Part shown: piece after piece, positions 47,157-59,068 of the stretch
Numbering within the stretch: the stretch's first letter is position 1
Layout of the letters: the number at the start of each line of letters is the position of its first letter
Assembly (NCBI GenBank): GCA_964599535.1
Contig: CAZRFP010000001.1
Span: 3,558-67,557 of the forward strand
Source: an uncultured Planctomycetaceae bacterium
Lineage (GTDB): Bacteria; Planctomycetota; Phycisphaerae; UBA1845; UTPLA1
Length of the DNA stretch: 64,000 nt
Direction: 5' to 3'
Notes under the pieces: model-generated
What the model saw: only the letters and a program-made list of their open reading frames with translations
What the model was told of the DNA's origin: nothing
The model's database searches: none
Position numbers and translations under genes: made by a program

Positions 47157-50100
47157 ATGGAGGCTGGAGAAACAAGTCGATCCGCGCTGACCGATGCGTG
47201 GATTTCGGAGTGGATTTCGGCCGCGCCGCGCGCGGTGATGCATCCATTTCGTCCTCCGGGCGATGCCGTCGAGATCGGCGACGAGATCGCGCTGCGGCAT
47301 TTTTACCGCATTCAACACCATCCCGGCGTGCAACTCGCGGCGGAACTGAACTGGACCGAGGACCCCTTCAACGATCGCAATTGGCAGATCTGGTTTCATT
47401 CGCTGACGCCGGTCAGTTATCTCGTGCAGGCGTACGAAAAGTCAAATCAGGCCTTGCATCTCGATCGCGCGAAGGCGATTGTCGAATCGTGGATCGCGGC
47501 GCACATCGACGGCGCTCGGGAACATCCGATGACGTGGCACGATCACGCGATCGCGCTGCGCGTGCTGGTGCTTCTGGAGTTCGCCGAAGTCTGGCGGCGA
47601 AGCGGCGGCGCAGATATTGAGTTTGCACGGCGGCTGTTGGCCACGCTGCACGGCCATGGCCGTTTGTTGCTCGAGCCGGCGATTTATCGCGCGGCGCACA
47701 ATCACGGCATCGAGCAGGATCGGGCGCTGCTTTCACTGGCGATGCTTGTTCCCCAGTGGCCGGAGTCGGATGCGTGGCGTCAACTTGCGTGGAGCCGCCT
47801 GCTGGAGCAGATTCGCGCGGGAATCACGCCGGAGGGCGCACATGTCGAACACTCTCCGGAGTATGAGGGGCTGGTCTTTCTCATGCTGGCTCAGACGCGG
47901 GACTTTCTGGTCGCGCATGGTCGGCCGTTTGTGGAACTGGGCCATGCGGTTGACAGCCTTCAACGCAAGATTGCGTTTTCACTTCGACCGGACGGAACCT
48001 GGCCACCCGTCGGCGACTCCGTCGCGCGTCGCAGCGAAGAACTGCTGGAGTATCTGCGTTCTCGGGGCGACATCGGCGCCGAAGCGCTCTATGCACTGAC
48101 CAGCGGCGCGGAAGGCGCCGCACCGACTTCGAGTCATCTGGTGCTGCCGGGGAGCGGTTGCGCCGTTTTTCGAGAGCGATGGGAACGCGCGCGGCAGTCC
48201 GGCGCGCTGCATTGCTACTTTACGGCGGCGTTTCACTCGCGCACCCACAAGCATCATGACGATCTGTCGCTGTCGGTCCATGCGTTCGGTCGCGAAGTGT
48301 TGACTGATGCCGGACGTTATTCCTACAACTATGACGATCCGCATCGCCGTTACTGCGAATCGGTCCATGGCCACAATGTGGTGATCGTCGATGGGTCAGA
48401 CACCGATCTGCGCCGGACCAACGTCGGCAAGTCGGGCATGACGGCCAGCTTTTCAGGCAAGCGCGTGGTCGGCGTCGACGCAGTGCACTATCTATACCAG
48501 GGCGTCGAATCGCGCCGATTGCTGTTGTATTTTCCTCCGAACATCTTGATCGTATTTGACAGGTTGGCGAGCGATCACCCGATTTCGGCGCTGCAGCAGT
48601 TTCTTTTTGCACCCGAATGGGTCCCGACTCCCATCGGCGAGGAAGGCCGCGCGCTTCGTGCCGCACAGAGCGAAGTCGTGGGCGGTCCTTCTGTTCAGAT
48701 GGTGCAGTTGTTCGGCGGTGCGGATCGAATGAGCGTGGTTCGCGGCCAAGGCGAACCCTTTATCGGATGGGTCTCTCGCAGTCACGGCAGCATTGAACCT
48801 TGCAGCGCGGTTCACACCGGCGCGGCGGGTGCAGGCGTCGTGTTTGTGACGGCGTTTGTGTTTGAACCGAATGCGGAAACCCGATGCGATGCCGTCGGTT
48901 CCGCGCGATGGGACGGCCGCGAGTTGCAATGCAGCCTGCAACTTAAGGGCGACGCGCTTAAGCTTACATTTCAGCAGGACTCCAATCGCGCGCGTTTGCT
49001 GCATCGCGGCACGACGCTGGAGTCGTGCGTATGGCCGACGCCTTATGAATTCAGGACTCGCCGAATGCTGGGACGCATGACGAACGCGTCGGCGTCGGAT
49101 CAAAGCGTCGATGGGGCATCGGGCGCGGGCGCCGATCCTCCACTCGGCGGCGCGGTCGTGGAGCGGCTCGGATCGATCACGGCGCAAGTCGAACAACTCG
49201 AACTACGCCATCGCCAGGCCGTCGAACTGTTGAATCATGATCTGGATCACCTTCAACAGGGGCTTCAATCTGTTCAGGACGGCCTGCTTGGCAATCTCAT
49301 GCAACGCATTGAGGAGATCGAGCGCGCCCGGGCCCAGCTCGAGATTCGCGAGCAAGTTCTTCAGCAGCGCGTGACTGCGATGGAGGAGAACGAGCGCCAT
49401 CTTCAGGAGCGTCTTGCGCGGGCGCAGCAACTCGCGGCCAATCGCCTTGAGTCGCTCAATAAGCGGCAGGTCAGCCTGGATCAGCTTCGACTGCGGCTCG
49501 AAAAGGCTCAGCAGGCGTGCGACGAGTCGCGCGACAAGTTACGGCGCGTTTCGGAGGAGAAACGCGTCGAGCACCGGCGCTTCATGCACGCGCAGGAGCA
49601 GTTGTGGGACACGATGAACTCGGTGCGCTGGCGGCTGGGGAATGCGATCATCCTCGCGATGCGGCCGTCGATGGATACGCTGAAGCTGCCGATTCGCCTG
49701 GTGAAACTGGTTCGCGACGGGCTGAAGCGGCGCGCCGAGCGCCGCGCGAATGAGCTGAGTCCTCCGGATTCGCCGAAATCGGCCATAAAGAAAACGGCGG
49801 CCGGTGCGGCAGCTTCGAAGCCGTTTACCATCGCATCTGCCGGCGCGGCCCAATCGCCGGCGCGTGTCGTCACGTCGACACTGGGGCCCAGCGAGGCATC
49901 AAAGCGAAAGCCGGCTGCGGCGAAGAAGGCGCATGGCCTGTCACCGGCGCCTCGGCGCGACGTGCGCGTCGCGTGCATTCTGGATGAGTTTTCTTATGAG
50001 TGCTTCGAGACCGAGGCGGACTGGCGGCAGCTCTCGCCGGACGGCTGGAAGCGCGAGATCGAGGCGCACCGGCCGCAACTGCTTTTTGTTGAGTCGGCGT

Positions 50101-59068: not shown

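Follow-up and report, generated by a model that had tools for sequence, protein, structure and literature searches.

A four-gene planctomycete locus joining heparinase II/III-like domains to glycosyltransferases, a deacylase-like domain and methyltransferases: a possible cytoplasmic-face machine for tailoring the ends of an envelope polysaccharide

The locus described here lies in the genome of an uncultured Planctomycetaceae bacterium (assembly GCA_964599535.1, contig CAZRFP010000001.1), within a 64-kb stretch of DNA that we refer to as the window and whose numbering is used for positions unless another locus is named. It consists of four co-directional genes, here called g1 to g4 (Table 1), which together encode two heparinase II/III-like domains (A in g1, B in g4), a CgeB-like glycosyltransferase (GT), a deacetylase-like domain, a GT-C membrane glycosyltransferase (g2) and two paralogous S-adenosylmethionine (SAM)-dependent methyltransferases (MTs), MTa from g3 and MTb from the N-terminal part of g4. 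An earlier reading of the same DNA, hereafter the original prediction, had proposed this gene content and a tight spacing of the genes; the open reading frame (ORF) calls reproduced the latter, with 125 nt between g1 and g2, 64 nt between g2 and g3, and an ATGA overlap of g3 and g4, while Pfam matches and alignments reproduced the former. The spacing applies with g2 starting at ATG 53420; its ORF opens at TTG 53303, and the public gene call, an exact match in the protein collection, starts at ATG 53420 and comprises 669 aa. The products of g3 and the g4 N-terminus share 36% identity over 251 aa (E 9e-49) and the heparinase-like domains of g1 and g4 38% over 618 aa (E 6e-131), and with this paralogy and the fusions described below the view of a system built from fused and duplicated modules was upheld.

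Both heparinase-like domains matched the Pfam pair Hepar_II_III_N (PF16889) and Hepar_II_III_C (PF07940) above the gathering cut-offs of 22 and 24 bits, with 47.1 bits (E 2.8e-12) and 47.0 bits (E 3e-12) across residues 46-545 of g1, and with 52.4 and 54.6 bits (E about 1e-14) across residues 347-795 of g4. The best solved relatives of both were heparinase III enzymes from polysaccharide lyase family 12 (PL12; PDB 4MMH, 5JMD and 4FNV), 4MMH being matched by domain A with E 3.6e-07 and by domain B with E 5.4e-08. In the alignment to 4MMH, an Asn-His, a Tyr and a His stand opposite the g4 motifs QHNHG, PDYQ and HKHQDD. The corresponding motifs of domain A are NHG, EHSPEY, HKHHDD and GHN, and NHG, EHSPxY, HKHxDD and (G/A)HN are retained in all 22 aligned heparinase-like domains associated with the gene cassette described below. 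We take the aligned Asn, Tyr and His to be the catalytic N240, Y294 and H424 of Pedobacter heparinase III. As the catalytic motifs are retained, the two domains look catalytically competent to abstract the C5 proton of a uronate. Heparinase III from B. thetaiotaomicron (4MMH, 5JMD) and Pedobacter heparinus (4FNV) is thus alike in its Pfam N and C domains and in its catalytic positions, but the window domains are only about 20-25% identical to it and differ in family-specific motifs, among them WHDHA (WYDMA in other cassettes). In place of the secretion and catabolic locus typical of PL12-type lyases, they show no signal peptide or other N-terminal hydrophobic segment, are fused to a GT or an MT, and have biosynthetic neighbours.

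A hydropathy scan, which is heuristic, found neither an N-terminal hydrophobic segment nor a transmembrane helix in the products of g1, g3 and g4, in agreement with the original prediction that neither heparinase-like protein carries a signal peptide. Because, in addition, SAM- and nucleotide-sugar-dependent domains are part of the same polypeptides, the heparinase-like domains are predicted to be cytoplasmic; judged from the sequence, the missing signal peptide excludes a secreted lyase and still allows a cytoplasmic one. Their motifs would fit β-elimination and C5-epimerisation alike and give no preference for an epimerase, since dermatan sulfate epimerase 1 (DS-epi1) has the toroid and β-sandwich fold of bacterial lyases, with a catalytic His and Tyr that coincide with lyase residues and superimpose on heparinase II (PMC8006597). 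DS-epi1, which resembles the window domains in fold, acts in the eukaryotic Golgi lumen, where it epimerises C5 at the polymer level during biosynthesis; DUF4962, the N-domain family of DS-epimerases, was absent from the Pfam matches of the window domains at E ≤ 0.01.

In a search of 1.84 billion sequences, 793 representatives matched the heparinase-like domain at E ≤ 1e-30, tandem heparinase-like and cell-wall-anchored proteins included, and among the best 150 of the 1.84 billion representatives no MT-heparinase-like fusion was found outside the lineage of the query itself. Matches in two stretches were considered as such fusions and rejected, as they turned out to be tandem heparinase-like proteins. 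A separate observation concerns three further architectures among the 1.84 billion representatives, represented by P0057, P0062, P0064, P0069 (about 1230-1450 aa), P0134 and P0075: two heparinase-like domains in tandem, a heparinase-like domain with a canonical Polysacc_deac_1 domain, and three CWB2 domains with a heparinase-like domain.

The g1 product is a fusion of a heparinase-like/coiled-coil/GT protein (residues 1 to ~1490) with a protein composed of two FN3-like domains and a CE4-like domain (FN3x2/CE4-like; residues ~1491-2045). Four kinds of element in it had been missed in the original prediction, namely the ~170-residue coiled coil, a cationic amphipathic helix, a GT-A-like domain and the two FN3 domains. 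The coiled coil following domain A was called from heptad character by a simple heuristic, together with weak SMC matches at residues 676-818, and an equivalent region was found in six of six homologues. Immediately after it lies the predicted helix TLKLPIRLVKLVRDGLKR, whose hydrophobic moment of 0.65 is the highest in the whole of g1 (about 3.4 standard deviations over the mean), whose net charge is +5, and which falls within a motif conserved in all g1 homologues. In the GT-B module, Glyco_trans_1_2 was matched at residues 1123-1256 (E 6.5e-22), corresponding to the C-terminal half of a CgeB-type GT-B, and a low-confidence model gave fold matches to SdgB, TarM, BshA and PimA. The GT-A-like domain was modelled with a predicted local distance difference test score (pLDDT) of about 90 at residues ~1269-1425 and matched the folds of 3BCV, ArnC and TarP; g1, P0002 and P0006 have different residues where the DxD motif would be, and the domain is possibly non-catalytic. 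EXT1/EXT2 also appeared as a top match (TM-score 0.18), which was kept as a hint only, since it reflects the GT-B plus GT-A domain order and the GT-B model is poor.

The C-terminal 555 residues of g1 were modelled with AlphaFold2 (AF2) from a 29-sequence alignment (pLDDT 90) as two FN3 domains followed by a CE4/NodB barrel. Polysacc_deac_1 matched g1 below the Pfam cut-off (E 0.008, 16.5-19.3 bits against 23.1), and the predicted deacetylase-like domain was instead substantiated by its fold: the best PDB match in Foldseek was the mycobacterial putative polysaccharide deacetylase 3RXZ (E 1e-08, target-normalised TM-score 0.62-0.66), and further matches were Salmonella ArnD (8T0J), 3QBU, 6HPA and 4M1B, the proteins HP0310 and BA3943 being among those matched by fold. 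The motifs FTxDTE, GTFFxD and RGHDxQxHxH and a later His are invariant in the CE4-like family, and D192, E194, D243, H267, D268, H272, H274 and H427 vary little or not at all, which is compatible with an active metal-dependent deacylase. The barrel is common to ArnD (8T0J), 3RXZ and HP0310, and ArnD is a precedent for CE4 deacylation of a lipid-linked sugar at the cytoplasmic face. Compared to CE4 enzymes, the domain has FTxDTE and HxH instead of TFDD and H(S/T)xxH, and is extended by the tandem FN3 domains at its N-terminus and by ~130 aa at its C-terminus.

The two FN3 repeats of g1 are 33% identical to each other. A search with hmmsearch (E 1e-10 to 1e-32) placed the same ~75-aa FN3-like domain at the N-terminus of a Wzt-type ATP-binding cassette (ABC) ATPase in the related locus L005, and also in a standalone 141-aa protein, in methyltransferases, in a BNR-like protein, in a GT4 enzyme and in a four-repeat protein. 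The domain is a candidate glycan-binding module common to cassette proteins, and its spread is what would be expected of a module by which exporter and terminating enzymes recognise one and the same glycan feature. The FN3x2/CE4-like module, which has no Pfam model, forms a family of 36 cluster representatives with 255 tblastn-confirmed genomic matches, about 15 of them full length.

Both methyltransferases exceeded the cut-off of 27 bits for Methyltransf_25 in Pfam (43.7 bits for g3, 54.6 bits for g4) and have a variant motif I, LDFGCAWG and LDLGCSWG, respectively, with Ala or Ser in place of the middle Gly. The g2 product matched PMT_2 (E 6.6e-08, 33.4 bits against a cut-off of 26.1), a family that presumably also covers ArnT-like enzymes, and a hydropathy scan gave at least eight transmembrane segments followed by a soluble C-terminal domain of ~270 aa. 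A sequence search of the PDB, ArnT included, gave no match to g2 up to E 10. Another GT-C gene of the PMT_2 type was observed 4.5 kb 3' of the locus (63572-64000, -), complete in the related locus L091 (17347-19278); blastp found no significant similarity between this gene and g2.

Six-frame ORFs of 90 related loci (L numbers) were compared with the window domains by BLAST. The word-indexed homology search was incomplete, as the g1 orthologue of L091 escaped it despite 87% identity, and its rarity counts (7 and 9 proteins) are to be read as minimum values. Homologues of g1 are rare, with at least six others, all of ~1470 aa and ending before the FN3/CE4-like part; the named relatives are Phycisphaerae and Planctomycetales metagenome-assembled genomes (MAGs). 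In L007 the order is WaaA (Kdo transferase), a g1 homologue (41% identity), a 563-aa FN3x2/CE4-like gene, an MT-MT fusion and an MT, and since these neighbours are separate genes there, g1 of the window is a fusion of two genes.

The FN3x2/CE4-like module followed by MTa and MTb, accompanied by a heparinase-like protein and a large GT, was found in about 20 loci from Planctomycetota, Actinomycetota and Pseudomonadota, and we refer to this five-part set as the cassette. The module-MTa-MTb order occurs in L007 (Planctomycetota), L020 (a Pseudomonadota MAG), L004-L006 (metagenomic contigs) and, within Solirubrobacterales and Thermoleophilaceae, in L008, L010, L013-L019 and L023; orthologues of MTa (41-65% identity) lie directly 3' of the module in other loci, and in L004, L007 and L020 the next gene after MTa is an orthologue of MTb (50-71% identity). 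The order continues through an optional MT-GT gene to a heparinase-like gene in L004, L008, L010, L013, L017, L019 and L020. Of the 20 module loci, 14 have a heparinase-like homologue no more than 10 kb away, most of the others being second module copies in one larger cluster. A large GT accompanies every module locus, either a TPR-GT4 or a CgeB-like GT (the latter in L007, L020, L021 and L022), so that the CgeB-like GT co-occurs with the module in all three phyla. Independent fusions join the same partners in other ways: the module with MTs (P0014), MT with MT (P0009 to P0013), a heparinase-like domain with an MT in the reverse of the g4 order (L021), and a heparinase-like domain with a canonical CE4 Polysacc_deac_1 domain (P0134).

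Co-conservation, a test set for the original prediction, was therefore found for the CE4-like module, both methyltransferases, the heparinase-like protein and the large GT, but not for the GT-C gene: g2 had a homologue in 0 of the 90 loci (E ≤ 1e-5) and is present only in the sister lineage L091/L092. It sits between the CE4-like module and MTa, where it interrupts the otherwise conserved order, and its G+C content at third codon positions is the lowest of the locus (0.64; 0.69-0.74 in the other genes), making it a lineage-specific insertion that has been kept by selection (dN/dS 0.14).

The sister lineage is represented by two independent assemblies, L091 and L092, with ~86% DNA identity over the locus, the same genes of 2045, 669, 264 and 927 aa and the same flanks; the giant g1 fusion is therefore genuine and no assembly artefact. 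By the Nei-Gojobori method, with dS of about 0.45-0.6 between the window and this lineage, dN/dS was 0.135 for the whole of g1, 0.14 for g2, 0.13 for g3 and 0.14 for g4. Within g1 the GT-B module was the most constrained (0.05), followed by the CE4-like domain (0.11), the heparinase-like domain (0.12) and the coiled coil (0.18), and the GT-A-like domain was the fastest-evolving (0.29). Every part of the locus is thus under purifying selection, with dN/dS of 0.05-0.29.

Exporters lie beside several relatives: L005 has Wzm/Wzt, L001 and L003 have a Wzt-type ATPase, and L004, L008 and L010 have Wzx/Wzy, together with a Bac_transf initiating transferase in their surroundings. In L001 and L003 the solitary g1 homologue is divergent from the ATPase, which is of Wzt/TagH type and has a ~290-aa N-terminal extension of unassigned fold. 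Beside this ATPase, as an observation in its own right, stands a 440-460-aa protein with an acidic tail and no family match. By tblastn, neither the L001/L003 ATPase and its neighbour nor the L007 neighbours had a match in the window. Epimerase_2 (UDP-GlcNAc 2-epimerase) and UDP-sugar dehydrogenases are encoded near cassettes in L005, L006, L008 and L009, and aminotransferases also occur near related cassettes, L009 having in addition a WbpB/D-like fusion; together with the exporter genes, these neighbours are hallmarks of surface polysaccharides with N-acetyl-hexosaminuronic acids. The L009 stretch (1933-9782, an alphaproteobacterial MAG) deserves separate mention, as it holds a CE4-like module, the WbpB/WbpD-like fusion, a DegT aminotransferase, UDP-GlcNAc 2-epimerase and a Chondroitinase_B-type β-helix protein, a gene set that looks like the 2,3-diacetamido-mannuronic acid pathway. 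With such contexts in the relatives and the fusions to GT and MT, the view that the locus is a functional unit for making and tailoring a polysaccharide rather than degrading one was strengthened.

Proteins of comparable layout are known from O-antigen synthesis that depends on ABC transporters. WbdD has N-terminal catalytic sites, a coiled-coil ruler and a C-terminal membrane-associated amphipathic helix with a polymerase docking site; WbbB and Klebsiella O7 ORF6 combine a terminator head, a coiled coil and two GT modules in one polypeptide, ORF6 also having an Ig-like putative carbohydrate-binding module (CBM); and Wzt proteins with CBMs read chain ends (PMC11231755). Likened by architecture, WbdD (E. 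coli O9a/K. pneumoniae O3), WbbB (O12) and ORF6 (O7) share with g1 the order of head, coiled coil, amphipathic helix (in g1 a candidate for membrane association, with a linker after it) and GT modules, and both systems are cytoplasmic and include methyltransferases. An Ig/FN3-like putative CBM is found in ORF6 and g1 alike, g1 relatives adjoin Wzt-type ATPases, and the L005 Wzt with its cassette FN3-like domain is a parallel to the CBMs on Wzt proteins. The head of g1, however, is heparinase II/III-like, not a methyltransferase/kinase or a Kdo transferase, and g1 further differs in its CgeB-like GT, in the appended CE4-like domain and in the lack of an ABC exporter in the window. The head position is interchangeable between a classical terminator type (methyltransferase) and a heparinase-like domain, because Sumerlaeia relatives of the same CgeB-like GT (L034, L057) have a methyltransferase as their head and a coiled coil of 175-400 residues; an actinobacterial relative (L021) similarly consists of an N-terminal domain, a coiled coil and the CgeB-like GT. 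A logic in which glycans are assembled in the cytoplasm and a coiled coil joins modifying enzymes to GTs is thus already known, while the heparinase-like domain in head position and the five-part cassette are undescribed in the literature searched.

The order of head, coiled coil, helix and GT in g1 points to modification of the chain end with length control, and we tentatively propose (probability about 0.45) that the four genes specify a machine which works at the cytoplasmic face, assembling an O-antigen- or capsule-like envelope polysaccharide that contains uronic acid and tailoring its end. We infer its substrate, the order of its reactions, their specificity for the end, the ruler and termination function and the chemistry of the heparinase-like domains as follows. 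The GT-B module, with its GT-A-like partner, would extend the chain at the membrane, where the cationic amphipathic helix would keep g1, and the ~170-residue coiled coil would hold the heparinase-like head at a fixed distance, so that only chains past a certain length could be reached. At or near the non-reducing end, the heparinase-like domains would abstract the C5 proton of a uronate, resulting in β-elimination or C5-epimerisation; the FN3-tethered CE4-like domain would remove an N-acyl group; and methylation of the product would fall to MTa and to MTb, which has a heparinase-like partner of its own. The modified chain end or segment may then mark the glycan as finished, and the GT-C enzyme g2, as a lineage add-on, would probably decorate or transfer the glycan on the periplasmic side.

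Two Vibrio proteins bear on this proposal. The heparinase II/III-like VV0358 is encoded in the capsule locus of V. vulnificus YJ016 and is genetically required for capsule production (PMC6037467), and V. cholerae VpsJ was proposed in 2026 to turn ManNAcA into L-GulNAcA once the residue is on the lipid carrier (PMC13463779), which makes post-transfer C5-epimerisation at the cytoplasmic face plausible in such pathways. Both are likened to the locus by description; neither is fused to an MT or a GT, and VpsJ is described as 2-epimerase-like, not heparinase-like.

A more far-reaching version, which we consider improbable, would make the heparinase-like domain a new kind of chain terminator on the tip of a coiled-coil ruler: the chain would receive an unsaturated 4,5-uronate or a C5-epimer at its end, completed by the CE4-like domain and the MTs into a tag read by the FN3-like domain that is shared with the exporter. 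In the case of β-elimination, the 4,5-unsaturated uronate left behind could not be extended. No description of a lyase-type chain terminator was found in the literature searched; searches by Pfam accession returned degradative lyases only, plus VV0358, papers on Agl32 and on the Pasteurella type B capsule contained no heparinase-like component, and a review of E. coli O-antigens added nothing of use.

Several points weigh against an end-tailoring machine. The two halves of the system are separable, as L001-L003 have the g1 homologue alone, without CE4 or MT genes, and cassettes adjoin Wzx/Wzy as often as ABC exporters, while ruler-type termination is known only from ABC-dependent pathways. In the window itself no Wzm/Wzt, Wzx/Wzy or initiating transferase was found, as the original prediction had already stated; those exporters that were seen lie beside relatives. 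The calls of the coiled coil and of the membrane helix come from simple heuristics, and the AF2 model behind the GT-B module (g1 941-1490, 7 sequences) is poor there, with a pLDDT of about 60. The GT-A-like domain has no conserved DxD, which leaves the activity of a two-linkage polymerase hypothetical. We know of no glycan structure from any carrier of the cassette. Lastly, the evidence is compatible with action at the end and along the chain, and it is mainly in this respect that the proposal differs from the explanation discussed next.

The original prediction had favoured a modification line in the style of glycosaminoglycans or alginate, and in such a line, running along the whole polymer, the heparinase-like domains would be uronate C5-epimerases, the CE4-like domain would N-deacetylate amino sugars and the MTs would O-methylate, giving a product like heparan or dermatan sulfate or alginate with methyl in place of sulfate. 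The fold that the domains have in common with DS-epi1, a polymer-level epimerase with its catalytic residues in the same places as heparinase II (PMC8006597), speaks for this, as do the cytoplasmic placement of the heparinase-like domains within biosynthetic cassettes and the proposal that VpsJ epimerises after incorporation into a lipid-linked intermediate (PMC13463779), although VpsJ is not reported to be heparinase-like. The UDP-GlcNAc 2-epimerase and UDP-sugar dehydrogenase genes of L005, L006 and L008 suggest residues of the ManNAcA type, whose C5 epimer L-GulNAcA occurs in bacterial glycans, and the GT-B plus GT-A order bears a weak resemblance to EXT1/EXT2. All lyase catalytic positions are retained, however, with no leaning towards an epimerase, and DUF4962 as the marker of DS-epimerases went undetected by Pfam. 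The heparinase-like domain sits at the far end of a coiled coil, in the position held by an MT in relatives, which fits end modification better. We regard an along-chain line as rather unlikely.

In an Arn-like route, the GT-A-like domain would load an N-acylated amino sugar on polyprenyl phosphate, the CE4-like domain would deacylate it at the cytoplasmic face as ArnD does, and g2 would, after flipping, transfer the sugar to lipid A, core or another periplasmic acceptor in the manner of ArnT. ArnD (8T0J) and ArnC (8VXH) are indeed among the fold matches of the CE4-like and GT-A-like domains, g2 belongs to PMT_2, and genes for the lipopolysaccharide core are near, with HldE and a heptosyltransferase in the window and WaaA beside the L007 homologue. 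We nevertheless consider the route very unlikely, given that g2 is without a homologue in the 90 related loci and without a detectable sequence match to solved structures including ArnT, that the CE4-like module always travels with methyltransferases, and that the GT-A-like domain has neither a conserved DxD nor a transmembrane anchor; two heparinase-like domains and a coiled coil would also be left without a role. It seems more improbable again that the heparinase-like domains are turnover lyases that break down uronic oligosaccharides, whether imported or wrongly made, or shorten chains into primers, among loosely related neighbours. The heparinase III catalytic positions are intact, and cytoplasmic oligo-uronate lyases without a signal peptide exist in PL15 and PL17. 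Biosynthetic operons often hold a lyase or hydrolase, as the V. vulnificus authors suggest for VV0358, but that protein is needed for making the capsule and not for degrading it (PMC6037467). Moreover, heparinase-like domains have been fused covalently to GT, MT and CE4-like domains, repeatedly and independently, and no sugar importers or uronate catabolism genes were found in the window or the related loci.

The genes surrounding the locus are housekeeping genes and unrelated to it: HldE, Ppx/CHAD and a ParA-CBM48 protein upstream, and a convergent ornithine/arginine decarboxylase and a prolyl oligopeptidase downstream. The ParA-CBM48 gene was considered as a member of the locus and rejected, since the sister lineage is the only other place where the two occur together. 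A scan for promoters and terminators was uninformative, with counts the same as in shuffles; it gave one promoter-like site ~150 nt 5' of g1 and no terminator-like sites in the two intergenic gaps.

Further observations were made elsewhere in the window. The ParA-CBM48 protein (45429-46886, +) is an unusual pairing of a ParA/MinD-type ATPase (AAA_31, 5e-53) with a C-terminal CBM48/AMPK glycogen-binding domain and suggests positioning of glucan granules. At 11606-12928 (+), 35 kb from the locus, a nucleotide-sugar dehydrogenase nearest to UDP-ManNAc dehydrogenase and TviB is encoded, followed on its 3' side by a 655-aa ORF (13213-15180, +) that matched neither Pfam nor NCBIfam. This UDP-HexNAc dehydrogenase-like gene counts, with the epimerase and dehydrogenase genes near the related cassettes, towards a uronic acid in the proposed polysaccharide. 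A fatty acid desaturase, an AMP-binding-like protein and an OlsE-like ornithine lipid hydroxylase stand in a row at 15425-18897 (+), suggesting membrane lipid remodelling. A 1746-aa protein (29121-34361, -) combines a glucose/sorbosone dehydrogenase (GSDH) domain, a proprotein-convertase P domain and a DUF4215 cysteine-rich repeat. Finally, a CarH-like MerR-type regulator with B12-binding domains (35338-36237, -) is divergent from genes for GTP cyclohydrolase I (36327-37067, +) and a two-domain fasciclin protein (37135-38028, +).

Table 1 Genes and domains of the four-gene locus and selected features of related loci. Positions refer to the window, or to the related locus where one is named.
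Feature	Position	Strand	Description and basis
g1	47157-53294	+	2045 aa; multidomain scaffold protein
g2	53420-55429	+	669 aa; GT-C membrane glycosyltransferase (PMT_2)
g3	55494-56288	+	264 aa; SAM methyltransferase MTa
g4	56285-59068	+	927 aa; methyltransferase MTb and heparinase-like domain B
Heparinase II/III-like domain A	g1 aa 1-640, 47157..49076	+	α/α toroid and β-sandwich
Coiled-coil spacer	g1 aa ~665-838, 49149..49670	+	proline-free, ~170 residues; core 713-801
Cationic amphipathic helix TLKLPIRLVKLVRDGLKR	g1 aa 841-858, 49677..49730	+	candidate membrane anchor; hydrophobic moment
CgeB-like GT-B module	g1 aa ~955-1265, 50019..50951	+	Glyco_trans_1_2, fold matches
GT-A-like (GT2-fold) domain	g1 aa ~1269-1490, 50961..51626	+	AF2 fold matches
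Two FN3-like domains	g1 aa ~1494-1649, 51636..52103	+	AF2 model, tandem FN3 matches
CE4/NodB-fold deacylase-like domain	g1 aa ~1675-2045, 52179..53291	+	AF2 fold, sub-threshold Pfam match
MTa	g3, 55494..56288	+	class I SAM methyltransferase, Pfam
MTb	g4 aa 1-285, 56285..57139	+	class I SAM methyltransferase, Pfam; g3 paralogue
Heparinase II/III-like domain B	g4 aa ~312-927, 57218..59068	+	fused to MTb
Wzt/TagH-type ATPase	L001 8099-9691	-	
Wzt/TagH-type ATPase	L003 8281-9726	-	
ORF with FN3-like domain	L005 7748-8800	+	hmmsearch
ORF with FN3-like domain	L005 8823-9248		hmmsearch
ORF with FN3-like domain	L005 11497-12741		hmmsearch
ORF with FN3-like domain	L005 13741-15183		hmmsearch
ORF with FN3-like domain	L004 4179-6347		hmmsearch
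ORF with FN3-like domain	L010 5141-6889		hmmsearch

Bacterial loci for capsules and O-antigens commonly contain heparinase II/III-like genes, and to our knowledge none of the proteins they encode has a demonstrated biosynthetic function. The fusions and gene orders described here tie the heparinase-like domain to a GT, a coiled coil, a CE4-like deacylase and two methyltransferases, links that are missed when such loci are read gene by gene, and they turn the question of what heparinase-like proteins do into one of specific reactions. Two unnamed protein families are at the same time defined, the FN3x2/CE4-like module and its FN3-like domain. If termination or epimerisation in the cytoplasm is indeed what these proteins carry out, it would represent a new chemistry for setting glycan length and marking chains for export, and a bacterial counterpart of the lyase-fold epimerases that act in the synthesis of animal glycosaminoglycans.

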